This document shows, one piece after another, positions 1 to 23,073 of a DNA stretch of 64,000 bases; position 1 is the stretch's first letter, and every line of letters starts with the position of its first letter. The notes beneath the pieces were generated by a model, which did no database searches, was not told the DNA's origin, and worked only from the letters and a program-made list of their open reading frames with translations. Source of the stretch: a virus. Position numbers and translations under genes: made by a program. The stretch is taken from the IMG/VR virus record IMGVR_UViG_3300045988_159790. One strand, given 5' to 3'.

Positions 1-45
1 CGAACATGCGCCGAAACAAATAATTACCAAAACAATTGTAACAAT
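1..45 (-). CDS. 5' end of leftward gene running off window; hydrophobic N-terminus (MIVTIVLVIICFGAC...)
   Basis: ATG at 45 (minus) with AAAGGGG RBS just upstream; frame open to window edge; minus-strand promoters at 121-149 and ~99-116 upstream. Confidence 0.3.
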   Translation of the reverse strand, partial: MVTIVLVIICFGACS

Positions 46-120
46 CATAAAACTCAACCCCTTTCTATATTTATATGATAACATATTTTTTTATAATTGT
101 CAACTCCTTTCTACATTGTT

Positions 121-149
121 ATTATAACATTTTGTAACTTATTTGTCAA
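121..149 (-). promoter_or_regulatory. minus-strand promoter TTGACA-17-TATAAT (proximal, cassette 1)
   Basis: rc hexamers attata 121-126 and tgtcaa 144-149. Confidence 0.6.
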
Positions 150-164
150 GAACTTTCTGAAAAA

Positions 165-192
165 CTTTGTTTTCAATCTCATTTGTTATCTG
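165..192 (-). promoter_or_regulatory. conserved leader motif CAGATAACAAATGAGATTGAAAACAAAG (minus sense), copy 1
   Basis: Near-identical 27-nt block present once in each cassette between the distal and proximal minus promoters. Confidence 0.5.
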
Positions 193-217
193 CTTTTCTC
201 TGTTCCTTACATTGAAT

Positions 218-246
218 AGTATAATACTTTGAGGCAGATATTGCAA
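218..246 (-). promoter_or_regulatory. minus-strand promoter TTGCAA-17-TATACT (distal, cassette 1)
   Basis: Read from rc. Confidence 0.5.
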
Positions 247-255
247 TAGACAATA

Positions 256-295
256 TGCACAAAGTTATGGGAAAATATTTGTGCAGTTTTATGTG
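256..295. promoter_or_regulatory. operator-like inverted repeat TGCACAAAG-N-TTTGTGCA
   Basis: 8-9 bp arms with ~15-bp spacer containing TTATGGGAAAAT; located 10-50 bp upstream of plus promoter. Confidence 0.4.
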
Positions 296-305
296 CGGAT
301 TTCGC

Positions 306-334
306 TTGACAAAATATCAAAAGTATGGTATAAT
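306..334 (+). promoter_or_regulatory. consensus sigma70-type promoter TTGACA-17-TATAAT (cassette copy 1, convergent to flanking genes)
   Basis: Exact hexamers and 17-bp spacer read from sequence. Confidence 0.7.
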
Positions 335-342
335 GGTAAATA

Positions 343-369
343 CCGGCGAAGCCGGACGCCTTCCAGGCG
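343..369 (+). ncRNA. promoter-proximal twin hairpins A (CCGGC-GAA-GCCGG) and B (CGCCT-TCC-AGGCG), copy 1
   Basis: Begins ~9 nt after -10; stems co-vary between copies. Confidence 0.35.
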
Positions 370-394
370 ATGATTTTCTGACGAAAATTTTAGT

Positions 395-426
395 CATAAC
401 TAAAAAGGTAGGCATTTCTGCCTACC
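395..426 (-). terminator. rho-independent terminator of 439..888 (GGGTAGGCAGAAATGCCTACC + TTTTT on minus)
   Basis: Hairpin plus T-run on minus strand. Confidence 0.7.
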
Positions 427-438
427 CGCAACTGACTA

Positions 439-888
439 TTATATTAAATCTTTAAGTCTTTCAATAATGTCCTGTCTCGCGTCTATCGTGCAACCCTGCG
501 ACCAACCGCGTCTTACCTTTTCATTATCATCAACTAATATCTGAAATCCGCCTAAATGTCTAGTACAATTGGCTTTCGTTGTGCCATACTTGACAAGATG
601 TACTTCATCATAAGGGAAACCTATCTGCTCAAGCCATGCTCTCTTAGCACTGCGAACAGCCGCGTCATATTTTTTATTGCTTTCCTTGCTTAACCAACTT
701 ACAATAACAATCTTCCAACCATTAATCTTGAGTGTATTAATCAAATCGTTTAACATTGTAGGCTCATAAACTGGCTGTGCTATCTCATAAGGGCGAGTGC
801 TACAATTCTTTAAATCTTCAAGCCAACCCTCAACTCCATAGAAATCTGCTATTGTTCCGTCCATATCAAAAACTAAAATTTTATTCAT
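439..888 (-). CDS. HAD-superfamily phosphatase (5'-nucleotidase-like)
   Basis: N-terminal FDMDGTIADF (DxDGT motif I), VIVSW (motif II), LVDDN (motif IV); RBS AGAGGT; intrinsic terminator 395-426 just downstream. Confidence 0.75.
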   Translation of the reverse strand: MNKILVFDMDGTIADFYGVEGWLEDLKNCSTRPYEIAQPVYEPTMLNDLINTLKINGWKIVIVSWLSKESNKKYDAAVRSAKRAWLEQIGFPYDEVHLVKYGTTKANCTRHLGGFQILVDDNEKVRRGWSQGCTIDARQDIIERLKDLI

Positions 889-944
889 ATTATATACCTC
901 TTTTCTTTTTTAGATTGTCGGGGCTTTTCAGCCCCAACTTATTA

Positions 945-1916
945 TTAGCAATATCCCTCAAGCATTAACATTAAGCCCTCAATCTTACTTACATAAGAAT
1001 TATGCGTTGTCTGCTGGCTAAGATAGTTGTTAAATGCTTCAATAACTACTGGAATGGCTTTCGGTCTCTTGTTAATAGCATAATCGTAAGTTGTACCCAG
1101 TTCTCTGAAAGGAAAAGCCTTGAGTATTGGTTCAATCTTGCCTTTCTTTAATGCCTTTGTGAGAATATCAGCTTCTATCTCACTATCACTTAATGCGGTA
1201 TGGTCCTCAGTAAAATCGTATCTCTTATTAAGATACTGGAAGCTAGTTTCTGCTGAAGATTTAAAGAACTCTCCGCTGTTAGTGATTAAGCTATTGTCAA
1301 GACAGAAGTTTCTGTACTTATCAATATTTATTAATCTCTCACAAGCTACTGCCCATAAGTCCACGATAGGAAACTCAAAATCTCTTAACTTAAATACTGG
1401 TTTAAGATACTCTGGATTACTCTCTCTATCATCTTTATATCCCCTAACAATCTTCTCACAACTCATTCTCTGCTTATCTTCCCAGTACTGATAGCCTGGT
1501 GCGTAAAGGTGTGCGATGTACTGTTCTGTAAAAGGAATTGCTTTCTTGTAATCAAATGCGGCATTGTATGCACATGTGCAAGTACACATTTCCAAATCTT
1601 CAAGCAATTCTGCAACCATATCATTCCAGTTGCGAACACCTATCTTACCCTCTGCGAGAAGCTGTTCATAAATAGGGCGCTTATTGCGGTAATAGGCTGT
1701 ATTAAAGATAGCCGGTACAAAGAAAGTTTCCTGAATAAGATAATTAACTCTCTTTACTCTATTGCCCAATCTGTCTGTTATTACCCAGCCTATATCATAA
1801 ACAAGTGGCTTGGCAATAGCAATCTTCTGTTTCTGTTTCGGATTCTTTGCAATCTCATTTGCAAAAGGTAGTGTAGCAGTCTCCGTGTCCAATGTTAAAT
1901 AATACTTCTTTTTCAT
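945..1916 (-). CDS. DEDDh 3'-5' exonuclease (DnaQ-like)
   Basis: Exo I LTLDTETAT, Exo II YNAAFD, Exo III HTALSDSEIEAD motifs; RBS GAGGT; co-transcribed with 439..888 (no promoter in 889-944). Confidence 0.85.
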   Translation of the reverse strand: MKKKYYLTLDTETATLPFANEIAKNPKQKQKIAIAKPLVYDIGWVITDRLGNRVKRVNYLIQETFFVPAIFNTAYYRNKRPIYEQLLAEGKIGVRNWNDMVAELLEDLEMCTCTCAYNAAFDYKKAIPFTEQYIAHLYAPGYQYWEDKQRMSCEKIVRGYKDDRESNPEYLKPVFKLRDFEFPIVDLWAVACERLINIDKYRNFCLDNSLITNSGEFFKSSAETSFQYLNKRYDFTEDHTALSDSEIEADILTKALKKGKIEPILKAFPFRELGTTYDYAINKRPKAIPVVIEAFNNYLSQQTTHNSYVSKIEGLMLMLEGYC

Positions 1917-1955
1917 TTCTAAATGATACCTCTTTTCTTTGATTTCTATGTGTTT

Positions 1956-1985
1956 ATTATAACACCCTTTTTATTATTTTGTCAA
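1956..1985 (-). promoter_or_regulatory. minus-strand promoter TTGACA-18-TATAAT (proximal, cassette 2; drives exonuclease-HAD operon)
   Basis: Read from rc. Confidence 0.6.
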
Positions 1986-2001
1986 GTGGTTTTTTAAAAA
2001 A

Positions 2002-2028
2002 CTTGTTTTCAATCTCGGTTGTTATCTG
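2002..2028 (-). promoter_or_regulatory. conserved leader motif copy 2
   Basis: cttgttttcaatctcggttgttatctg. Confidence 0.5.
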
Positions 2029-2057
2029 TTTTTCTCTGTTCCCCTTGAACAATTATA

Positions 2058-2086
2058 ATTATAGACCTACTACAAGAGAATGTCAA
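2058..2086 (-). promoter_or_regulatory. minus-strand promoter TTGACA-17-TATAAT (distal, cassette 2)
   Basis: Read from rc. Confidence 0.6.
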
Positions 2087-2132
2087 GCATTTTTTAGGAA
2101 AAAATTGTTTTTATTTTAGTACATAAAATCGC

Positions 2133-2161
2133 TTGACAAATTACCGAAAGTATGCTACAAT
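2133..2161 (+). promoter_or_regulatory. promoter TTGACA-17-TACAAT (cassette copy 2)
   Basis: Read from sequence. Confidence 0.65.
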
Positions 2162-2169
2162 GCAAAATT

Positions 2170-2196
2170 CCGGCAAAGCCGGTCGCGCAGAGCGCG
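2170..2196 (+). ncRNA. twin hairpins A (CCGGC-AAA-GCCGG) and B (CGCGC-AGA-GCGCG), copy 2
   Basis: Same position relative to promoter; compensatory stem changes. Confidence 0.35.
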
Positions 2197-2205
2197 GTGA
2201 AAATG

Positions 2206-2232
2206 TAAAGAAAAAGTGCGGATTTCCGCACT
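2206..2232 (-). terminator. rho-independent terminator of 2231..2575
   Basis: AGTGCGGAAATCCGCACT + TTTTTC on minus. Confidence 0.7.
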
Positions 2233-2575
2233 AATTCTGATACAAATTTTTTACTTCTATTACATTTCCGCAACTATCACATTTATAATAATAATAGTTA
2301 GTACCTCCTACACCTCTTCCGCGACTGGAAGCACTAACAAATTCATAATGTCCATTTTCGCATTCTGTACAAATTCCATTATTCCATGTTTTTATATCGC
2401 TATCTGCCTCTTGTATAAGACCAAAAGAGAATAAACCCGCAATTATACTTGTAGTTATAATAAATACTAATATTTTTAACCATTTCTTTTTAGTATTCAT
2501 ATTACTAATTATTATTATACCGAAGAATGAACAAATAAGAAACATTAAACAAAACATAACGATATTTCTAAACAT
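2231..2575 (-). CDS. hypothetical membrane protein, two TM helices plus C-terminal CxxC...CxxC zinc ribbon
   Basis: 114 aa ORF, RBS AAAGGGG, hydrophobic segments, CTEC...CDSC; terminator hairpin at 2206-2232. Confidence 0.5.
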   Translation of the reverse strand: MFRNIVMFCLMFLICSFFGIIIISNMNTKKKWLKILVFIITTSIIAGLFSFGLIQEADSDIKTWNNGICTECENGHYEFVSASSRGRGVGGTNYYYYKCDSCGNVIEVKNLYQN

Positions 2576-2613
2576 ATTTTACCCCTTTCTTGGGGCTGTA
2601 TAGCCCCAATCCT

Positions 2614-3084
2614 TTATAATGTTTTACACTCTGCGACGAAATACTTCGCATGATATTTTTCTACAATAGCCTTTACAACAGTGCTTTGCTTTTGTGTCTC
2701 ACAATAGACATTGAATAACATATACTTCTCAATATCTATGTAGCTATATGGAATCCTTAAAGTGTCTAAAGTTTCCATTAACTCTTTAGCATAATGTGGC
2801 TTCACTGTCATTTCCACTTTCCATAGTTTATCTCTTGTACTCTTTTCTTCAATCAGCTTTACAATGTAAACTCCGATAAGATTACACATAGCTATTATGA
2901 AAGCCTTTAAGAGAAGCGGAAGGTCGCACATCATGTATATTACTACAATAGTATACAAACCATAGGCTAATGCGTTGATTGCGGCGGCAGCTCCTTTTCC
3001 ACACTTGACAGTTACTAAAGATTTTGCTGTCTGAATAATAACATTTACAATGTTAAGAATAATAAATAAAACTAATAAATTCAT
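2614..3084 (-). CDS. hypothetical membrane protein (N-terminal TM helices, soluble C-terminal domain)
   Basis: 156 aa ORF with GAGGT RBS; hydrophobic N-terminal half. Confidence 0.5.
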   Translation of the reverse strand: MNLLVLFIILNIVNVIIQTAKSLVTVKCGKGAAAAINALAYGLYTIVVIYMMCDLPLLLKAFIIAMCNLIGVYIVKLIEEKSTRDKLWKVEMTVKPHYAKELMETLDTLRIPYSYIDIEKYMLFNVYCETQKQSTVVKAIVEKYHAKYFVAECKTL

Positions 3085-3101
3085 AATTAATACCTCTTTT
3101 C

Positions 3102-3323
3102 TTAATATTCTTTTACTTCTCTTACTAAATCAACTGGTTCAGGTGGTACATCTGCTTCTGTAAGGTCTAACCAACAATGTCGCTCAAGCCATCTCAAAAG
3201 AACTAACTGTTCTCCTGTTATGTGTAAATATGTTGGCAGATTATCTTCATCATCATAATTGCCCTCAAGGTCTAATTTCTTAATACTTACATCATATTCA
3301 TCTTTCATAATTGAATACCTCAT
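3102..3323 (-). CDS. hypothetical small acidic protein (probable true start at internal ATG 3308, MKDEYD...)
   Basis: ORF; GAGGT RBS sits 8 nt upstream of the internal ATG. Confidence 0.45.
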   Translation of the reverse strand: MRYSIMKDEYDVSIKKLDLEGNYDDEDNLPTYLHITGEQLVLLRWLERHCWLDLTEADVPPEPVDLVREVKEY

Positions 3324-3350
3324 TTCTATTCTATGTTTTTGTCAAGGATA

Positions 3351-3377
3351 CTTGTTTTCAATCTTATTTGTTATCTG
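3351..3377 (-). promoter_or_regulatory. conserved leader motif copy 3
   Basis: cttgttttcaatcttatttgttatctg. Confidence 0.5.
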
Positions 3378-3395
3378 TTCCCTTGAACAATTATA

Positions 3396-3423
3396 ATTAT
3401 AACAGATTATAAGCAAATGTCAA
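3396..3423 (-). promoter_or_regulatory. minus-strand promoter TTGACA-16-TATAAT (distal, cassette 3)
   Basis: Read from rc. Confidence 0.55.
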
Positions 3424-3467
3424 GCAGTTTTGGGAAAATAAAAAAATTTTTTATTTTGATTTTTCTC

Positions 3468-3496
3468 TTGACAAAAATGCCAAAATGTGATATAAT
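3468..3496 (+). promoter_or_regulatory. promoter TTGACA-17-TATAAT (cassette copy 3)
   Basis: Read from sequence. Confidence 0.7.
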
Positions 3497-3505
3497 ATCA
3501 AAATA

Positions 3506-3541
3506 CCGGCGAAGCCGGACGCCCACAGGGCGGTCTTTTTT
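3506..3541 (+). ncRNA. twin hairpins A and B (CGCCC-ACA-GGGCG) followed by T-run GTCTTTTTT; a ~40-nt promoter-to-terminator unit, copy 3
   Basis: Hairpin B plus T7 forms an intrinsic terminator on plus strand. Confidence 0.4.
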
Positions 3542-3545
3542 GAGC

Positions 3546-3582
3546 ATAAAAAGCTGATGACTATTAGTTTAGTCATCAGCTT
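3546..3582 (-). terminator. rho-independent terminator of 3587..3952
   Basis: AAGCTGATGACTAAACTAATAGTCATCAGCTT + TTTT on minus. Confidence 0.7.
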
Positions 3583-3586
3583 ACAG

Positions 3587-3952
3587 CTACTTTTTCTTTC
3601 TATGCTTTATCAGCGACAGTGAGTATTCATTCTCGCCGATGTTAAAGGTCAACTCTTTCTGCGGATTGGCTATCTGAACATTACTAATCTTGCCATTAAG
3701 TACCATTCCTCCAAGTAGAGTTTTTAAACACCCGATAAAATCAACCTTTTCATCATCGAGTTTTACTTCTCGTGGCTTCCGCGGTTTCTTTTCAGCTTCC
3801 GCACCCTTAACATAGTTTTTTATTCCCTTAGCTTTGATTTCCATTTCCGCCATTTCCATAGCTTCTTCTTTTGTGACTGGTTCTCCGTCTGCTTCACATT
3901 CCTTGAAAATCTTTAAAGCTAACTTCTCTAAGGCTTCTTTTTTACTATCCAT
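3587..3952 (-). CDS. hypothetical protein
   Basis: 121 aa ORF, RBS AGAGGT, rho-independent terminator 3546-3582 immediately downstream. Confidence 0.55.
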   Translation of the reverse strand: MDSKKEALEKLALKIFKECEADGEPVTKEEAMEMAEMEIKAKGIKNYVKGAEAEKKPRKPREVKLDDEKVDFIGCLKTLLGGMVLNGKISNVQIANPQKELTFNIGENEYSLSLIKHRKKK

Positions 3953-3974
3953 GCCCTATACCTCTTTCTTTTAA

Positions 3975-3999
3975 ATTGGGCGGTGTATTTCAACCGCCC
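3975..3999 (-). terminator. GC-rich hairpin after 4009..4386 (weak T-run)
   Basis: GGGCGGTTGAAATACACCGCCC. Confidence 0.35.
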
Positions 4000-4008
4000 G
4001 TCCGCAGA

Positions 4009-4386
4009 TTAGACAAGTGAGAAGATTGCCTTGTCCTTTTCCTCTTCTCTCTTTGCTGTGCCATTGGCAACCATAATCTTGAGAAGTGCAACTACTTTCT
4101 GATTAGAAAGCGCCTGAACCGCTTCATCAGCAGGGAAGTCTTTCATAGCCTTGAGCATAATCTGAGTAGAAGTACCCTTGAAACCGTCAAGGACAACCTT
4201 GAGCTTCTCAACCAGTGCTTCATTAGCCTTAGCTTTCTTATCAGAACCAGCCTTAGCCTTAGCTTTCTTCTTCTCAAGGAGTTCCTTTTCGTGCATAAGA
4301 TAAGTCTTATACATCTCATTGTCCTGTACGAACTCTTCTCCAAGCATAGCCTCGATAACCTGTAACTTTGTAATCTTCTTTTCCAT
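4009..4386 (-). CDS. hypothetical protein (K/E-rich, helical)
   Basis: 125 aa ORF, RBS GAGGT; hairpin 3978-3999 downstream. Confidence 0.5.
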   Translation of the reverse strand: MEKKITKLQVIEAMLGEEFVQDNEMYKTYLMHEKELLEKKKAKAKAGSDKKAKANEALVEKLKVVLDGFKGTSTQIMLKAMKDFPADEAVQALSNQKVVALLKIMVANGTAKREEEKDKAIFSLV

Positions 4387-4498
4387 AATGCAATACCTCG
4401 CTTTTATATAATATTTGAAGCTGATTTTTATTTTTTAATGTGGTCGATTGATGGCTCCCTTTCCTTTCCACATATATATGATAGCACATTTTATTGCG

Positions 4499-4789
4499 CT
4501 AGTCAAGCATAAATAATGTCATTCCGGCTATTTCCTTTTCTACCACTTCTAAAGTATCTAAATGAATAGTGGCTCTGACTATCTTCCAACAGCCAGTTTC
4601 AAACTTGTTGTGTTCATGGCGGCGTGGTAGTCTCTCTGCGGCATGGACTGCACTCTGACAATCTTCAAATACACCATCTATAACATAAGCAACTTGCGTT
4701 CCCATGCAATCTAAGTATCTCATTACTTTTAAGACATACTTAGTCTCTGTTTTTCTTGGTACATGCTTAGTCTCTGTTCCCATAACCAT
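4499..4789 (-). CDS. hypothetical protein
   Basis: 96 aa ORF directly downstream of minus-strand TTGACA-17-TATAAT promoter 4810-4838; RBS GGAAG. Confidence 0.5.
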   Translation of the reverse strand: MVMGTETKHVPRKTETKYVLKVMRYLDCMGTQVAYVIDGVFEDCQSAVHAAERLPRRHEHNKFETGCWKIVRATIHLDTLEVVEKEIAGMTLFMLD

Positions 4790-4809
4790 TACTTCCTTTC
4801 TATACCCTT

Positions 4810-4838
4810 ATTATATCACTTAGGTATCTATTTGTCAA
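4810..4838 (-). promoter_or_regulatory. minus-strand promoter TTGACA-17-TATAAT (proximal, cassette 4)
   Basis: Read from rc. Confidence 0.6.
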
Positions 4839-4860
4839 GCACTTCTTTTTTTTTGTTCGG

Positions 4861-4888
4861 GTTGTTTAGCAATCTCATTTGTTATCTC
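4861..4888 (-). promoter_or_regulatory. conserved leader motif copy 4 (more diverged)
   Basis: gttgtttagcaatctcatttgttatctc. Confidence 0.4.
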
Positions 4889-4901
4889 CCTTACAAGTAT
4901 C

Positions 4902-4929
4902 ATTATAGCAGATTGCCCCAAAATTGCAA
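4902..4929 (-). promoter_or_regulatory. minus-strand promoter TTGCAA-16-TATAAT (distal, cassette 4)
   Basis: Read from rc. Confidence 0.5.
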
Positions 4930-4939
4930 TAGTCAAAAC

Positions 4940-4969
4940 TGCACAAGATTTTGGGATAATGTTTGTGCA
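4940..4969. promoter_or_regulatory. operator-like inverted repeat TGCACAAG-N-TTTGTGCA
   Basis: Same architecture in cassette 4. Confidence 0.4.
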
Positions 4970-4988
4970 ATATGTCAACTTTTTTCCC

Positions 4989-5017
4989 TTGACAAAAATC
5001 CTAAAAGGTGGTATAAT
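4989..5017 (+). promoter_or_regulatory. promoter TTGACA-17-TATAAT (cassette copy 4)
   Basis: Read from sequence. Confidence 0.7.
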
Positions 5018-5026
5018 AGGCAAATT

Positions 5027-5050
5027 CCGGCGGGGCCGGACGTGCTCCGC
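5027..5050 (+). ncRNA. hairpin A (CCGGC-GGG-GCCGG) and degenerate hairpin B, copy 4
   Basis: Same spacing from -10. Confidence 0.3.
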
Positions 5051-5059
5051 CCGGTGCGA

Positions 5060-5200
5060 TTATTCTAACTTAAATTAGTTTGAACTAACAAGTGTTTTAT
5101 AAGTCTAACTTAAGTTAGCTTAATCTAACTACAGTTAGTTTGAATTAACAAGGATTAGCTTAATCTAACTAGAGTTAGTTTGAATTAACAACTGTTAAAA
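5060..5200. repeat. tandem ~40-bp iterons (2 near-identical plus 2 degenerate) each carrying palindrome CTAACT-N2-3-AGTTAG followed by TTTGAATTAACAA
   Basis: agcttaatctaactacagttagtttgaattaacaagg at 5117 and 5157; degenerate copies at 5060 and 5098. Confidence 0.7.
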
Positions 5201-5299
5201 ATTGCTAACTTTACTTTTATAAAACGAACTTCAATTCGTCTTCTCTAACTTTAATTTTATACAGCTAATTACAGATATTTGTAGCTAATTAAAATTAGA

Positions 5300-5335
5300 G
5301 AACGCAAATCGAATTTTGGAGGGTTGCCGCTACTT
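5300..5335 (-). terminator. hairpin GGGTTGCC-N7-GGCAACCC overlapping stop of 5330..5614 (weak T-run)
   Basis: 8-bp stem. Confidence 0.35.
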
Positions 5336-5614
5336 GGCAACCCAAACCTTTAATATTATGTCGTCATATTTAGACGACTGGTCATTAATGTCAAATAACA
5401 TCTTGACATTTTGACCCTCCGCGATATCACAGCCATCATATTCCCAGATATCGCCTGCCCTATCAGCAATCCGCACAAATCCATTATCATTGCTGATTAC
5501 CTTACCCTCTCTTGTACAGTGACCCTCAAGGTATATCGCGCCTAAGAATAATATTCCTAAAACTAAACCCAGGGCTATTCTTTTAACTATTGCTTTACTA
5601 TTGTTTTTTCTCAT
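5330..5614 (-). CDS. hypothetical secreted/membrane-anchored protein
   Basis: 94 aa ORF, N-terminal basic stretch plus hydrophobic helix (signal/anchor-like), RBS GAGGT. Confidence 0.5.
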   Translation of the reverse strand: MRKNNSKAIVKRIALGLVLGILFLGAIYLEGHCTREGKVISNDNGFVRIADRAGDIWEYDGCDIAEGQNVKMLFDINDQSSKYDDIILKVWVAK

Positions 5615-5675
5615 TTTAAATACCTCATTTCATTTTTATTTTTATATGTGGGCTTGGCTTCCCAAGCCCTAATCA

Positions 5676-5984
5676 TTAACAATATATCAAACTCATGTCT
5701 GCCCACTTGAGAATAGATATCTGTGCGCATTGTCTACCAAGTGCCAAAGCGTCTCTTTTTGTAGACACTCTGTGGCTCTTGTCTACAAAATAAACGCCAT
5801 TCTCAAGCCAAAGTCCGCAATTACCACCGTATGCTCTAACGGCTTTAATTGCTTCCTCGGGAGTTGTAACCATTACTCCCTCGGTGGCTACTTGATAACC
5901 ACTCTTGTATGTGATTATCTTACCATTCTTGAGTGTTAAACCGCCACACTCCTCAATCTTTCTTATTGTCCTAATGTTTATCAT
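5676..5984 (-). CDS. hypothetical protein
   Basis: 102 aa ORF with RBS GTGAGGT. Confidence 0.5.
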   Translation of the reverse strand: MINIRTIRKIEECGGLTLKNGKIITYKSGYQVATEGVMVTTPEEAIKAVRAYGGNCGLWLENGVYFVDKSHRVSTKRDALALGRQCAQISILKWADMSLIYC

Positions 5985-6026
5985 ACTTATAATACCTCAC
6001 TTTCTTTTCTCTTGGATAGTCCCGGC

Positions 6027-6356
6027 TTAGTAGCCGAGACTTATTAACTTGTCTATGTAAGAGTTCAGAACTGCTACAAACTGCTTGTTTGTCATCTTTC
6101 TAAACCTCTCAAGTGTAAAGTCGATAGGCGGAAGTTCTACACCCTCAACCTTTATGATGTACACCTGCGGACACGCTTTAATTGCATTGACTGCATGGAA
6201 GATGTTCACATCTTCGTATATATAAGTTGTGTCCTCATAGTTTGCAAATCTCATTGAGAACTTCTCTTTTGTATACATATTTAATTTCTTCATAGTAACC
6301 TCTTTTCTGTCTCTCTCTTGAAAGACTATCAATTTTATTTTACGGTTTTCGTTCAC
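6027..6356 (-). CDS. hypothetical protein
   Basis: 109 aa ORF with RBS AGAGGT. Confidence 0.5.
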   Translation of the reverse strand: MNENRKIKLIVFQERDRKEVTMKKLNMYTKEKFSMRFANYEDTTYIYEDVNIFHAVNAIKACPQVYIIKVEGVELPPIDFTLERFRKMTNKQFVAVLNSYIDKLISLGY

Positions 6357-6583
6357 CGCACCATTATAATATCATACCCCGTTTTCAATGTCAACACTTT
6401 TTTCAAAAATTTTTAAAAATTTTTTTATGCCCTATTTTCAAGGCTTTTCACGCACCCAAACACATGCACCAGACGATGATGTGACTACTTTTTTAGTCAG
6501 CAATAGTGACGATGTGTTTACTTTTGTAGTCAAATAGTCATCAATTATGGGATATGATTAGTCTTGTAGTCACACTCAATGTC

Positions 6584-6652
6584 GATTTGAAAAGTTTAAA
6601 TAACTAGTCAAATAGGCAAAATGCGACACGCTTTATGGGAGGAAGCGTGCCG
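6584..6652 (+). repeat. conserved ~70-bp element with hairpin whose loop is UAUGGGAGG (copy A)
   Basis: gatttgaaaagtttaaataactagtcaaataggcaaaatgcgacacgctttatgggaggaagcgtgccg; stem cacgctt/aagcgtg. Confidence 0.5.
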
Positions 6653-6660
6653 TTCAAAAT

Positions 6661-6780
6661 AACTAACCAAAGTTAGTCAAGCCTAACAATAGTTAGACTA
6701 AACTAATTAGATTTCGGGAAGACTAACTAGAGTTAGTTTGAATTAACAAGCATTAAGCTTGACTAACTCAAGTTAGTCTT
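6661..6780. repeat. second cluster of four CTAAC(T)-N-(A)GTTAG palindromes including one full iteron copy (gactaactagagttagtttgaattaacaag)
   Basis: actaac-caaa-gttagt, ctaac-aata-gttag, gactaact-ag-agttag, gactaact-ca-agttagtc. Confidence 0.65.
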
Positions 6781-6790
6781 TCCTAAACTA

Positions 6791-6823
6791 GATGAGTGCG
6801 GATTAGCGGTTTCCGCACTCATC
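6791..6823. repeat. perfect inverted repeat with 11-12 bp arms (GATGAGTGCGG ... CCGCACTCATC)
   Basis: Read from sequence; no adjacent T-run on either strand. Confidence 0.6.
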
Positions 6824-6979
6824 TAATAGACTAGACATGAAGCCGATGATGAACTCCATAAGACTAAGAAGTTCGTCATCAGATATGACTATGTGCGTAA
6901 GCACAAAGTCAACTTTCTGATTGACTTCTGTGACAGTGGAGCATTGCTCCACCATCACTATAGCTTCTAAAAAACTCAT
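6803..6979 (-). CDS. small hypothetical protein (58 aa, MSFLEAIVMVEQCSTVTEV...), not in ORF track
   Basis: Strong RBS GGGGAGGTGG; ATG overlaps the TGA of upstream gene 6976..7461 in ATGA arrangement (translational coupling); stop codon lies in loop of perfect 12-bp-arm palindrome 6791-6823. Confidence 0.45.
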   Translation of the reverse strand: MSFLEAIVMVEQCSTVTEVNQKVDFVLTHIVISDDELLSLMEFIIGFMSSLLDECGNR

Positions 6980-7461
6980 TCTACCACCTCCCCAGTTTTT
7001 TCATTTACTAAGCTACATCTAAGACCTAGTATTTTGCAAGCTTTAGCTGTATTATAGAATACTGATAATGCTGTGCCATAACTTTCAATCCCTGTAAAGA
7101 TTGGAGTGTTGCCATTATAAACTCCGTAGGTTACTTCCTGGAGTTCAAACTCCGCGATTGCGGAGTTTACTTGATTCTGCATTTCCTTAAGTAATGCTCC
7201 ACCGAAAAGCTCCTGAAGCTGATTGCCTTGAGTGAGACAGTCAAGTTCCATCTCTAACTTTGCCCAACACTCTGCTGAATCCTCATAAATAAACCCCTTG
7301 AGGATTATCTTGCAATCTACAGCATTAACTACACTGTGGATTGTATTGATTATCATAAGAGCATTATCTGCTACTGTATCAACACAGAGCCAGTTGCCCT
7401 CTTTAACTTCTTTACCTATTATTGACCTCATTGTTGCAATCAGCTTGTTTCCTTTTATCAT
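6976..7461 (-). CDS. hypothetical protein (ORF track start 7491 is TTG; ATG at 7461 with GGAAAGAGGT RBS preferred)
   Basis: ORF, RBS-supported internal ATG (MIKGNKL...). Confidence 0.5.
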   Translation of the reverse strand: MIKGNKLIATMRSIIGKEVKEGNWLCVDTVADNALMIINTIHSVVNAVDCKIILKGFIYEDSAECWAKLEMELDCLTQGNQLQELFGGALLKEMQNQVNSAIAEFELQEVTYGVYNGNTPIFTGIESYGTALSVFYNTAKACKILGLRCSLVNEKTGEVVE

Positions 7462-7573
7462 AATATACCTCTTTCCGCCCTTGCTTCTCAAGGGCTATCT
7501 AATTTATTTTGCCGCCATTGCCTTGCGACACCATTATAGTACACCCACCGCGCACTCATTGCAATATGCAAAA

Positions 7574-7603
7574 TGCACAAAGTTTGACAGATGTTTTTGT
7601 GCA
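7574..7603. promoter_or_regulatory. operator-like inverted repeat TGCACAAAG-N-TTTGTGCA (third copy, outside a full cassette)
   Basis: Preceded by same ATTGCAATA context as copies 1 and 4. Confidence 0.4.
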
Positions 7604-7741
7604 ATTTGTACAAAAGAGAATGCACCAAGATGGAAGTACCGAACATTTGTTCACCGCTTTAGTCAGCTCCGAGAATAGTTTAGTTTTTTAGACGCATGAG
7701 TTGTGGGAATTTTTATTTGACTACTTGATTAGACTTTTAGA

Positions 7742-7810
7742 ATTTGAAATGTTTAAATGACTAGAAATATAGTAAAATGCGGAGCGCTTTATGGGAGGAA
7801 GCGCGCCGAT
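7742..7810 (+). repeat. conserved ~70-bp element copy B with compensatory stem change (gcgctt/aagcgc)
   Basis: aatttgaaatgtttaaatgactagaaatatagtaaaatgcggagcgctttatgggaggaagcgcgccg. Confidence 0.5.
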
Positions 7811-7987
7811 GATTTGAAAATGTACGGGACTACAGTCTCAGTGTATGCTGATTATTTTTTGATAAAACTACAGACCATACATAAAAGGTGGTCATCAGTT
7901 TAAAATAAAAAAATTTTCTCTTTTTACCCGGGGATATATTATGGGAAAATGAAAAATTAATTCGATGAAATCATATTTAGCTGGTAC

Positions 7988-8050
7988 ATTCACACACCCC
8001 AAATTTTTTGAAATTTAAAAAACGATTCACACACCAAAAATTTTTTCGTT
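7988..8050. repeat. direct repeat ATTCACACACC(C/A)AAAATTTTTT x2 (37-bp period)
   Basis: Read from sequence. Confidence 0.5.
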
Positions 8051-8065
8051 TTTTAAAATACGAGA

Positions 8066-8371
8066 TTAATTCCGAACAACTCTTCCATGTTTCCCTGTTT
8101 GCTTATATGCCATAAACAGATTATTTAATTTAGTATTATTTCCATCCCCTAAGTTAATTAATAGGAAATCACAATTTTTTATAATATCTGAAGTTTCCGC
8201 ATTTTTTATATAGCGGGTCGGCGCGCCAACCGAATCAGCCCATTTTGCGGCAATGCTATCTTTATTTGTTACTAGCATATAAAATAAATAGCATTGACTT
8301 TCCGCAATTAACTTCTGCATTTCCGCATCAATATCTTCAATTTTATTAAAACCAATCGCCGCGACTATCAT
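8066..8371 (-). CDS. hypothetical protein, first gene of leftward arm at the divergent promoter region
   Basis: 101 aa ORF, RBS AAAGGAGTG, minus-strand TTGAAA-17-TATAAT promoter 8394-8422. Confidence 0.5.
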   Translation of the reverse strand: MIVAAIGFNKIEDIDAEMQKLIAESQCYLFYMLVTNKDSIAAKWADSVGAPTRYIKNAETSDIIKNCDFLLINLGDGNNTKLNNLFMAYKQTGKHGRVVRN

Positions 8372-8393
8372 TTTTATTCACTCCTTTATAATA

Positions 8394-8422
8394 ATTATAT
8401 CAAAAATTTTTTTTCTTTTCAA
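8394..8422 (-). promoter_or_regulatory. minus-strand promoter TTGAAA-17-TATAAT for 8066..8371
   Basis: Read from rc; divergent from plus promoter 8440-8468. Confidence 0.55.
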
Positions 8423-8439: not shown

Positions 8440-8468
8440 TTGACTTGTGAAAATTTTTTTGGTATAAT
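8440..8468 (+). promoter_or_regulatory. promoter TTGACT-17-TATAAT for rightward late/structural operon
   Basis: Read from sequence. Confidence 0.65.
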
Positions 8469-21809: not shown

Positions 21810-22775
21810 ATGAAGTTTGGTGTCCGCGAAATATGCGATGTAACTTTTAAAGCTACTTCAAATAACCAAAAAATCGGAAAGAAAACTTTCAAAGCTGGAC
21901 AGCCAGCGTTTTTCATTGATAGTGCAAAAACATCTACTTTAGAGCAGGCTACAACAACAGTATATGCTCAAGGTGGTAAAGGTAACTCTCGTCTTATTGC
22001 TTGGGAAGGTGAAAAGACTATGACATTTACAGTTGAAGATGCTTTAATTTCTCCACAGGGTCTTGCTGTACTTTCAGGTGCAGGATTACTTGAAGCTGGT
22101 GAAAACGCAATTCAGCATGTTCATGTTACTATTGATGCAACAGTTGGTGATGAAGGTAAGGTAGAAATAAGCTTAGCAGAACTTAATGATGAATTAGGTA
22201 CAAATGAAGAAGAGCTTACTATCTGCGGAGATATTCCAGTATATGCTACAAAGCTTGATGGTTCAGGTGCAGGTATTGATTATTATTCAGATGTTACACT
22301 TACAGGTGCAACAGGAACAGAAAATGATTATCTTGTAAAAGTTAGCGATAATGCTGAATTTACAATTAAGGATGATGCATCTTTAGCTGTTACTAAGGGT
22401 ACTGTTGTTAAGTTAGACTTCTATGTAGCAATGAAGAAAGGTGTATCTGAAATTACTATTGCTCCAGAAGATTTCGGTGGATATTACTATGTTGAAGCTG
22501 ATACTTTATTCAGAAGTGAAGCTACTGGTAAAGATATGGCAGCTACAATTACAATTCCTAAAGCTAAAGTACAGTCAGCAATGACATTTACAATGGCTTC
22601 TAGTGGAGACCCAAGTACATTCACATTCACAATGGATGCATTCCCTGGATATACTTACTTTGATAGAACAAAGAAAGTTATGTGTACTATCCAGGTTGTA
22701 GGTACAGATGGAACAACAGAGGATGAAACATACCATAAAAATGTTCCAGCAGATACTCACAAAGCTACACCCTAA
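21810..22775 (+). CDS. major tail protein (zero-frame product)
   Basis: 321 aa beta-rich protein with AAGGAGG RBS between head-tail genes and chaperone/TMP genes; followed (after extension ORF) by strong terminator 23101-23140. Confidence 0.6.
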   Translation: MKFGVREICDVTFKATSNNQKIGKKTFKAGQPAFFIDSAKTSTLEQATTTVYAQGGKGNSRLIAWEGEKTMTFTVEDALISPQGLAVLSGAGLLEAGENAIQHVHVTIDATVGDEGKVEISLAELNDELGTNEEELTICGDIPVYATKLDGSGAGIDYYSDVTLTGATGTENDYLVKVSDNAEFTIKDDASLAVTKGTVVKLDFYVAMKKGVSEITIAPEDFGGYYYVEADTLFRSEATGKDMAATITIPKAKVQSAMTFTMASSGDPSTFTFTMDAFPGYTYFDRTKKVMCTIQVVGTDGTTEDETYHKNVPADTHKATP

Positions 22776-23073
22776 AGAAGAGCCGGCAGAGCCGGTATAC
22801 ACTATTTCATTAGGAGAGCCTGATAGTAGTGTTGTAGGAAAAGTATCGTGGGATGTTACAGTTCAGAAAGACGGAAAAACAGAAGGAACTTGTGCATTAG
22901 TAAGCTCTACTGTAAACGCTCTTGATGCAACAGAGAACACAACAGTAGTAGGAAATAAAGTAACAGTTGACTATACAGCAGCAGGAGGAACTACTGATGA
23001 AGAAGTTAAGATTGTCGTTAAGTGTGTAGAAGACAATACTAAGACAGCTACTGGAACTTATACAATCGCGTAA
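22774..23073 (+). CDS. C-terminal Ig-like (Big_2-type) extension of major tail protein reached by predicted programmed +1 frameshift at CCC_UAA (22770-22775)
   Basis: +1 frame ORF with no RBS of its own overlapping end of 21810..22775; sequence ...VTVDYTAAGG...TGTYTIA typical of phage Ig-like domains; shifty stop context CCC UAA A. Confidence 0.45.
   Translation, partial: KEEPAEPVYTISLGEPDSSVVGKVSWDVTVQKDGKTEGTCALVSSTVNALDATENTTVVGNKVTVDYTAAGGTTDEEVKIVVKCVEDNTKTATGTYTIA

Follow-up and report, generated by a model that had tools for sequence, protein, structure and literature searches.

Consensus promoters with GC-rich hairpins oppose the early operons of a large, uncultured phage family: a candidate operon boundary element

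Layout of the window and sampling of its relatives

We analysed a 64,000-nucleotide stretch of virus DNA (IMG/VR record IMGVR_UViG_3300045988_159790; hereafter the window), focusing on four plus-strand promoters of consensus sequence that lie between its minus-strand early operons and are each followed by a short GC-rich hairpin element. The window has a GC content of 31.4% and is laid out as in large tailed phages: 1-8400 is taken up by small genes on the minus strand, a packaging and structural block including terminase, portal and a 3110-aa open reading frame (ORF) occupies the plus strand from 8434 to 57443, and minus-strand replication genes follow. The portal is 33-38% identical to the portals of ~140 kb Enterococcus phages and of the human-gut phage Phass-1, and IMG/VR contigs that are near-identical or related to the window are 133-150 kb long. 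No tRNA or tmRNA genes were found. Megablast of window positions 1-6000 gave no match among deposited phages, and distant blastn searches returned a weak match to Phass-1 and otherwise only promoter similarity of a generic kind, to Pseudomonas LUZ24-like phages. Pattern scans of IMG/VR recovered two kinds of relative, near-identical contigs with five copies of the element and more distant ones of ~80-180 kb; many phage contigs of 80-180 kb, from gut and rumen samples rich in Clostridia, have the same promoter-hairpin design.

Promoters and hairpins between the early operons

Exact matches to TTGACA-N16-18-TAYAAT number nine in the 64 kb, all within 121-5017, compared with 0.22 expected and with 0 of 100 shuffled sequences reaching nine. 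The pattern scan and the ORFs bear out the claim of an earlier sequence-only reading that four such promoters (TTGACA-17-TATAAT or TACAAT) stand on the plus strand against the flanking genes (Table 1): all credible flanking ORFs are on the minus strand, and the four promoters are located between early operons. Each has a TGn extended -10. Hairpin A (CCGGC-NNN-GCCGG), likewise reported by that reading, begins 8-9 nt past the -10 in 4/4 copies, for a chance expectation of 0.02, and the four GC blocks are the top four scoring GC islands of the whole window. In copies 1-3 a hairpin B with three different, fully complementary stems follows one base past hairpin A; RNAfold gives two 5-bp hairpins for each of these copies, and the predicted transcripts have z scores of -3.5 to -7.3 against dinucleotide shuffles. 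The compensatory stems proposed for hairpin B therefore stand in copies 1-3 and fall in copy 4, where the 32-nt GC block forms one longer imperfect hairpin that is no stabler than shuffles (z = -0.7) and where the GGTGCG arm, previously taken as the 3' arm of hairpin B, is missing in close relatives.

Scoring an intrinsic terminator as a GC-rich stem-loop followed by a T-run of at least 5 T in 8, we found plus-strand T-runs of unequal quality after the hairpins. Copy 3 has a canonical terminator-like GTC-T6 after hairpin B, and its description as a complete promoter-to-terminator unit of ~38-40 nt agrees with its sequence; copies 1 and 4 have weak or borderline T-rich tails and copy 2 has none, while relatives have T5-T9 after copies 1, 3 and 5. 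On the minus strand, terminators lie 37-58 nt downstream of the hairpins in copies 1-3. These separate terminators belong to the minus-strand operons, indicating that the hairpins are not simply parts of them, and as covariation is also kept in homologs (see below), the possibility that the hairpins are merely portions of bidirectional terminators fails. A role as extra minus-strand terminators was likewise rejected, since the T-rich tail that follows hairpin A on that strand is absent in distant relatives and the true terminators are separate. The suggestion that copies 1, 2 and 4 would read antisense into the upstream gene fares unevenly: copies 1 and 2 could do so only if hairpin B fails to terminate, and copy 4 points not into a gene end but into a 240-bp repeat array.

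Table 1. Coordinates of the promoter-hairpin units, the modules that contain them and associated features
Feature	Position	Strand	Remarks
Copy 1 non-coding promoter, TTGACA-17-TGg-TATAAT	306..334	+	Pattern scan
Copy 1 hairpin A, CCGGC-GAA-GCCGG	343..355	+	1-3 nt past inferred start A340-A342
Copy 1 hairpin B, CGCCT-TCC-AGGCG, with weak T-rich tail ATGATTTTCT	357..379	+	Stem-loop 357-369
Intrinsic terminator of convergent operon	406..427	-	Operon 945..1916, 439..888
Copy 2 non-coding promoter, TTGACA-17-TGc-TACAAT	2133..2161	+	
Copy 2 hairpin A, CCGGC-AAA-GCCGG	2170..2182	+	
Copy 2 hairpin B, CGCGC-AGA-GCGCG	2184..2196	+	No T-run
Intrinsic terminator of convergent operon	2215..2232	-	Operon 3102..3323, 2614..3084, 2231..2575
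Copy 3 non-coding promoter, TTGACA-17-TGa-TATAAT	3468..3496	+	
Copy 3 hairpin A, CCGGC-GAA-GCCGG	3506..3518	+	
Copy 3 hairpin B, CGCCC-ACA-GGGCG, with GTC-TTTTTT	3520..3541	+	Stem-loop 3520-3532; would give ~38-40-nt transcript
Intrinsic terminator of convergent operon	3551..3582	-	Operon 4009..4386, 3587..3952
Copy 4 non-coding promoter, TTGACA-17-TGg-TATAAT	4989..5017	+	
Copy 4 GC block, opening with the hairpin A match; one longer imperfect hairpin	5027..5058	+	Faces palindrome array 5060-5300
Whole module, copy 1	90..430		Others at ~1920-2235, 3325-3585, 4790-5060
Inverted repeat TGCACAAA...TTTGTGCA between divergent promoters, module 1	256..285		Module 4 equivalent 4940-4970; conserved family-wide
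Divergent coding-direction promoter P1, module 1 (TTGCAA-17-TATACT)	218..246	-	Equivalents 2058-2086, 3396-3423, 4902-4929
Gene-proximal promoter P2, module 1	121..149	-	Equivalents 1956-1985, 4810-4838
Chromosomal inverted-repeat promoters	L144-L263 (bacterial genome records)		E.g. L147 1890-2125

The start site in copy 1 was predicted from the Y-1/R+1 pattern. Other GC-rich hairpins were also noted in the window. A fifth hairpin of the A type (CCGGC-AGA-GCCGG, 22783-22795) lies 5 nt past the stop of a virion structural gene (21810..22775) and has neither promoter nor T-run. Within the early operons, GC-rich hairpins without a T-run occur at 920-935, 2590-2609, ~3968-3991 and ~5651-5672, each lying after a stop codon and ahead of the next minus-strand gene's ribosome-binding site; these could be attenuators, or mRNA processing or stability elements of the early operons.

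A repeated bidirectional promoter module

Missed by the sequence-only reading was that the promoter-hairpin unit is half of a larger bidirectional promoter module of ~300 bp, present in four intergenic copies at four operon boundaries with a mean column identity of 67%. Read in the coding (minus) direction, each module starts with the upstream operon's terminator and continues with hairpins B and A, the plus-strand promoter in reverse, the inverted repeat TGCACAAA...TTTGTGCA, the divergent promoter P1, a conserved ~30-nt box, the promoter P2 and the ribosome-binding site of the next operon. The box, CTTTGTTTTCAATCTCATTTGTTATCTG, is located at 165-194, 2001-2030 and 3350-3379, with a weaker version at ~4868-4890, and its position between P1 and P2 places it in the 5' leader of P1 transcripts, just upstream of P2. 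A close relative (L001, 3609-5077 versus window 4843-5055) has an extra ~1.4-kb cassette of one module plus one gene between copies 3 and 4. Its being bounded by the repeated module suggests that recombination between modules shuffles early genes.

Next to copy 4 on its downstream side, the region 5060-5300 contains 14-bp palindromes (CTAACTnnAGTTAG) spaced 20 or 40 bp apart, with TTTGAAyTAACAAG units in between, as well as a 37-nt imperfect inverted repeat. Judging by this arrangement it looks like a multi-site protein-binding array, which could serve as operator, origin or partition site. In the relative L079, one GC-class promoter (defined below) is likewise followed by a comparable array of palindromes.

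A non-coding class of consensus promoter across the phage family

A scan keyed on promoter plus upstream context, with the hairpin left out of the search, provided an unbiased sample of promoters, and all 142 loci pooled together yielded 877 unique perfect promoters. These split bimodally by the GC content of their first ~30 transcribed bases into a coding class (592 promoters) and a GC class (210). A ribosome-binding site and start codon are found within 70 nt of ~80% of the coding class versus 9% of the GC class, and a TTGTGCA-like element just upstream of 6% versus 63%. The two classes also differ in the sequence following the -10, which is TATAAT-AAA..Y-A(+1) in the coding class and TATAAT-GG-AA..T-C-S-G in the GC class. 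GC cores are 29 nt long at the median and start 7-8 nt past the -10, which coincides with the predicted start site; they fold into one hairpin in 176 of the 210 GC-class promoters and into two in 25, and 181 unique cores are stabler than shuffles (median z of -1.9), pointing to selection on structure. Whatever its mechanism, this is a second, non-coding class of consensus promoter that accounts for about a quarter of the perfect promoters in the early regions of gut and rumen phages from a large, uncultured group, and which gene callers or promoter-based annotation would otherwise misread as gene starts.

The orientation of GC-class promoters was scored by neighbouring coding promoters, ORF-based calls being too noisy. 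Single (not face-to-face) members oppose their neighbours in 110 cases and are co-directional in 31. An intrinsic terminator on the opposite strand lies within 85 nt past the core in 51% of the class versus 4% of control promoters, and one on the same strand in 21% versus 2%. A divergent partner promoter is present within 130 bp for 109/210 (83 coding-type, 7 GC-type), and the gaps between divergent -35 boxes peak at 48, 58-59 and 68 bp, indicative of helical phasing. Some members form face-to-face pairs of perfect promoters flanking one hairpin, as in L023/Phass-1 (OQ749652) at 130714-130832 and 132917-133036, and also in L015, L016, L025, L041, L047 and L053; the first ~20 nt of the two transcripts of such a pair would be complementary. 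That the palindrome might be two inverted copies of a DNA motif needed by face-to-face promoters was rejected, as the stems are unrelated between loci.

In the complete genome of Phass-1 (L264-L266) the GC class is limited to ~8 kb at the upstream end of a long minus-strand block, that is, its immediate-early end. The genome has 49 consensus-type promoters (at most one mismatch), 45 of them on the minus-strand early/middle block; the plus-strand ones are four, all GC-class, and the plus-strand structural block has none, from which late genes in this clade presumably use another route. The paper describing Phass-1 does not mention promoters or hairpins.

Covariation and strand of folding

The sequence-only reading had taken conservation of structure rather than sequence as the signature of a functional RNA, and covariation among homologs persists and indeed widens. 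Distant relatives have CGGGC/GCCCG in place of CCGGC/GCCGG in hairpin A, and other GC stems in hairpin B. In the alignment, pairing in hairpin A is complete (100%), and one pair has changed in both its bases, giving two clade-specific stems. Hairpin B has 7 distinct stems in 11 sequences with 55/55 positions paired, which 0 of 2000 column shuffles match; because the MAFFT alignment of hairpin B is out of structural register, it was not used for pair counts, and pairs were instead counted by script in the register of each sequence's own fold, which inflates the paired fraction. The loops of hairpin A are 3 nt long and variable (GAA, AAA, GGG, GGA, TTT, TGC, CTT), stems differ between copies within one genome, and there is no conserved single-stranded sequence, which argues against a role in trans through base pairing or sequence-specific recognition. 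Copy 2 bears what we take to be a loose resemblance to a type I-C CRISPR repeat; a CRISPR-repeat mimic (RNA anti-CRISPR) was rejected, as the stems differ between copies within one genome.

As a sign of a functional RNA, this conservation of structure is weakly strand-specific here: the covariation stands, and the stems, essentially Watson-Crick palindromes, show no G-U bias towards the promoter strand. The two strands have equal folding energies, and stable tetraloop motifs are rare on both and thus uninformative. The sole strand-specific signal is in the loops, which are A-rich on the promoter strand (A 143 versus T 82, compared with 50% in the flanks; p = 3e-5, an optimistic value since the sequences are related), the six loops of copies 1-3 having 11 A and 1 T. 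This bias gives mild support to the backward transcript being the molecule that folds.

Comparison with known systems

Rfam 15 gave no matches in the window at gathering thresholds, and hits at E<=5 were at chance level with none fitting the promoter-hairpin unit; a literature search of open-access text found no prior description of the element. The closest described arrangements are the PeSL cassettes and convergent-promoter systems (phage 186, lambda oop and collision-enforced bidirectional terminators). Promoter-early stem-loop (PeSL) cassettes of T4-type phages combine near-perfect sigma-70-type promoters with G/C-rich stem-loops (PMC2839356, PMC4122927). Like the units in the window, they are repeated intergenically in plastic early regions full of small orphan genes, and indels between close relatives are bounded by the repeats, as in the L001 cassette. 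They differ in that the PeSL promoter drives a downstream gene with a Shine-Dalgarno sequence while its stem-loop attenuates upstream transcription, whereas the hairpin promoter described here has no gene, opposes the gene flow and would transcribe its hairpin first, P1 and P2 of the module being the promoters that do drive genes. The phages differ too, PeSL phages being T4-type myoviruses and the window phage large, siphovirus-like and with probable Clostridia-type hosts.

Collision-enforced bidirectional terminators share with the window convergent units across stem-loops, here in the form of a strong operon versus a strong opposing promoter as judged at the sequence level; the described partners are both ordinary genes, whereas one partner here would be a dedicated non-coding promoter that served solely to provide the opposing polymerase. 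In lambda oop and phage 186 pR-pL, as here, a short non-coding transcript or convergent promoters oppose a coding unit. Lambda oop has a defined antisense target, cII. In phage 186, a case of transcriptional interference, face-to-face pR and pL, one strong and one weak, lie 62 bp apart and form the lysis-lysogeny switch (PMC7498355). By comparison, both face-to-face promoters in the present family are of consensus sequence with -10s ~32-38 nt apart, the arrangement is multi-copy, and the opposed genes are unrelated.

The sequence-only reading had also drawn an analogy to the antitermination elements lambda boxB and HK022 put. The put and nut sites do share with the window hairpins just downstream of a strong phage promoter, and hairpin A has a 5-bp GC stem like boxB. 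The boxB loop is a conserved GNRA-like pentaloop (GAAAA or GAAGA), unlike the variable 3-nt loops of hairpin A, and CGCTCTTTA-like boxA sequences (one mismatch allowed) occur 16 times in the window versus 13.3 expected, none near the four units. HK022 put is a ~65-70-nt RNA with two extended stem-loops and conserved internal features, in contrast to two 13-nt hairpins of free sequence; Rfam gave no match for the unit at any threshold, although the presence of a put model in Rfam was not checked. In put and Q antitermination the promoter is co-oriented with the terminators and genes that it serves, whereas the next plus-strand gene here is 3.4-8 kb away with its own promoter, and the unit has no ribosome-binding site and start codon. 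With copy 3 self-terminating and most family members having one hairpin, the analogy does not hold. Firmicutes and their phages also have 5' stem-loops that stabilise mRNA, such as those of ermC, the aprE leader and SP82. These likewise place a stable hairpin a few nt from the 5' end, and face-to-face coding promoters would give mRNA such a hairpin; the hairpin transcripts of the window differ in carrying no coding sequence.

Possible functions of the element

The element is real, widespread and apparently undescribed, and its likeliest candidate role is that of a boundary between early operons. Two of the interpretations offered earlier, tiny structured transcripts and elements of convergent transcription, appear viable. 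The reading that we put first, and hold tentatively, is a cis-acting boundary unit, in which a convergent promoter with a short structured transcript would enforce termination between early operons. A maximal-strength host sigma-A promoter would fire against the early-gene direction, with transcription beginning 1-4 nt before a 27-32-nt GC-rich palindrome, such that the nascent RNA would be structured almost from its 5' end, as two 5-bp hairpins (copies 1-3) or one longer hairpin (copy 4 and most relatives). The RNA would end at ~40 nt at hairpin B and its T-run in copy 3, and more weakly so in copy 1, or alternatively at the back of the convergent operon's intrinsic terminator. Backward polymerases would meet polymerases reading through from the upstream operon, and these programmed head-on collisions would enforce termination and shield the divergent P1 and P2 of the next operon from occlusion, while the structured RNA may limit backtracking and RNA-DNA hybrid formation, with the polymerase clearing quickly. 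In single-molecule work, preventing read-through at pairs of convergent genes was found to require polymerases to collide head-on at a site set by a nascent stem-loop (bioRxiv 10.1101/2022.10.23.513370). From the data, what the element needs is a maximal promoter, a stable 5'-end hairpin of arbitrary sequence, orientation against the gene flow and a position between operons, and it dispenses with a conserved single-stranded sequence, a gene and a fixed number of hairpins; this combination favours a role in cis. Should the boundary reading prove right, operon insulators would in these phages be made from a dedicated promoter rather than a terminator, a compact natural case of programmed polymerase collision that could be tested on short synthetic templates and would make a useful genetic part.

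Several observations weigh against the boundary reading. Three promoter regions of the window (4506, 6394 and 8422) are without the unit, about half of the GC-class promoters have no divergent partner or convergent terminator detected under strict criteria, and in most family members the GC hairpin is not a terminator, being followed by an A-run. Simple insulation would not lead one to expect face-to-face pairs flanking the hairpin, and 51 of the 210 promoters were scored in such pairs; the ~32-38 nt between their -10s means that two polymerases could not occupy both promoters at once. The stems are Watson-Crick palindromes in which G-U is no commoner on the promoter strand (65 versus 92 of ~1,850 pairs), a second terminator would insulate more cheaply than a promoter, and Enterocloster phage PMBT24, the one cultured relative checked, is without the GC class, the hosts of the family being uncultured.

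A serious rival to the boundary reading, though in our view an unlikely one, is a trans-acting mini-RNA: an abundant and stable 40-90-nt GC hairpin with a 5'-triphosphate, made from 4-6 gene copies, that would be a structure-specific inhibitor of, or decoy for, a host factor, for example a nuclease, RNA-binding protein or RNA-sensing defence system. In Firmicutes, RNA is classically stabilised by a 5' hairpin set within 1-4 nt of the start, and a mini-RNA would account for the maximal-strength promoter in several copies per genome, for the promoter-to-terminator unit of copy 3 and the succession of hairpin, A-rich linker and terminator hairpin in many relatives, for structure conserved with covariation and for the A-rich loops of the promoter strand. 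It offers no conserved loop or single-stranded sequence to a partner, its stems, loops and hairpin number vary, it has no Rfam match, and it does not predict coupling to convergent terminators, a phased divergent promoter or face-to-face promoters. We consider it quite unlikely that, as a particular form of this idea, the RNAs are sequence-independent, structure-specific decoys against a host nuclease or RNA-sensing defence, made from 4-6 maximal promoters from the first seconds of infection; if true, they would be a new class of RNA-based counter-defence. Equally doubtful in our estimation is a hub for polymerase capture and recycling, where the backward promoter would capture polymerase and release it after ~40 nt, and retained or sliding polymerase would re-initiate at P1/P2, or else divergent firing would keep the DNA underwound. 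After intrinsic termination, polymerase is often retained on the DNA, along which it diffuses to re-initiate nearby, also at oppositely oriented promoters (PMC6978380, PMC6978322, PMC10372574), and such a hub is consistent with the very short transcription unit, the divergent coding partners at 48, 58-59 and 68 bp and the shared TTTGTGCAA element upstream of both -35 boxes. Yet P1 and P2 are already near-consensus, a short untranslated RNA gives little rotational drag for supercoils, a partner is detectable in only about half of the family, and the requirement for a hairpin in the transcribed segment is left unexplained.

The remaining explanations are tied to what lies ahead of the backward promoter. 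A cis-antisense regulator resembling lambda oop, whose transcript would pass hairpin B and pair with the 3' end of the convergent mRNA, altering its stability or termination, is suggested by copies 1 and 2, which have no strong plus-strand terminator before the 3' ends of 439..888 and 2231..2575, and by relatives, in which overlap of the unit with the convergent operon invariably takes in at least its terminator hairpin. In most relatives the overlap goes no further than this shared hairpin, copy 3 terminates without reaching any gene, copy 4 faces the repeat array and the target genes are unrelated to each other, making this reading very unlikely. An antitermination switch could use RNA, as put does, or a protein, as lambda Q does at PR': the units would be strong, constitutive and give short terminated RNAs until a modified polymerase read through, silenced the early genes by antisense transcription and entered the co-oriented late block. 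All four units do point at the plus-strand structural block from 8434, Phass-1 has the same geometry, and a strong promoter with an immediate terminator, as in copy 3, is the lambda PR'-tR' arrangement. We nevertheless regard the switch as highly improbable: 3.4-8 kb of antisense early genes precede any plus-strand gene, the block is served by a promoter of its own at 8440, the variable hairpins are minimal, have loops that are not boxB-like and come with no boxA, face-to-face pairs would send polymerase straight into another promoter, and no Q-, N- or LoaP-like protein is found among ten early proteins. Priming or activation of an origin by transcription into it, for which non-coding early transcripts at some T4 origins provide a precedent, would apply mainly to copy 4, directly upstream of the iteron-like CTAACTnnAGTTAG array with its 20- or 40-bp spacing, a similar array following one L079 unit. 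Against it, copies 1-3 and the majority of relatives have terminators ahead of them, the DNA being transcribed is rich in GC where an unwinding element would be AT-rich, and GC skew only tracks gene orientation; origin priming is the explanation in which we place least belief.

An upstream element shared with Clostridia chromosomes

The motif TTTGTGCAA-N6-10-TTGACAAA..TATAAT has more than 120 matches in bacterial genome records, compared with an estimated ~0.25 expected by chance. The matches are mostly in Clostridia, including Oscillospiraceae, Ruminococcaceae, Lachnospiraceae, Faecalibacterium prausnitzii and Ruminococcus albus 8; some are mis-binned phage contigs with the GC class, and many others are chromosomal promoters. 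In the latter, the inverted repeat TTGCACAAA-N10-12-TTTGTGCAA and a consensus promoter precede a conserved, unannotated ORF of ~43 aa (e.g. MKDKLLRQYEAKILREMEESKAFSWKRIWKAIELSSIYNVLGE), an element that many genomes of Oscillospiraceae and Ruminococcaceae share with Faecalibacterium prausnitzii; Pfam and NCBIfam gave no significant match to the ORF. Phage GC-class promoters also have the inverted-repeat element upstream of them, and its occurrence at chromosomal promoters of Clostridia suggests that the phage upstream element is probably of host type and that the hosts are probably Clostridia. The shared TTTGTGCAA element also ties the immediate-early control of these phages to a putative regulatory site in Clostridia chromosomes.

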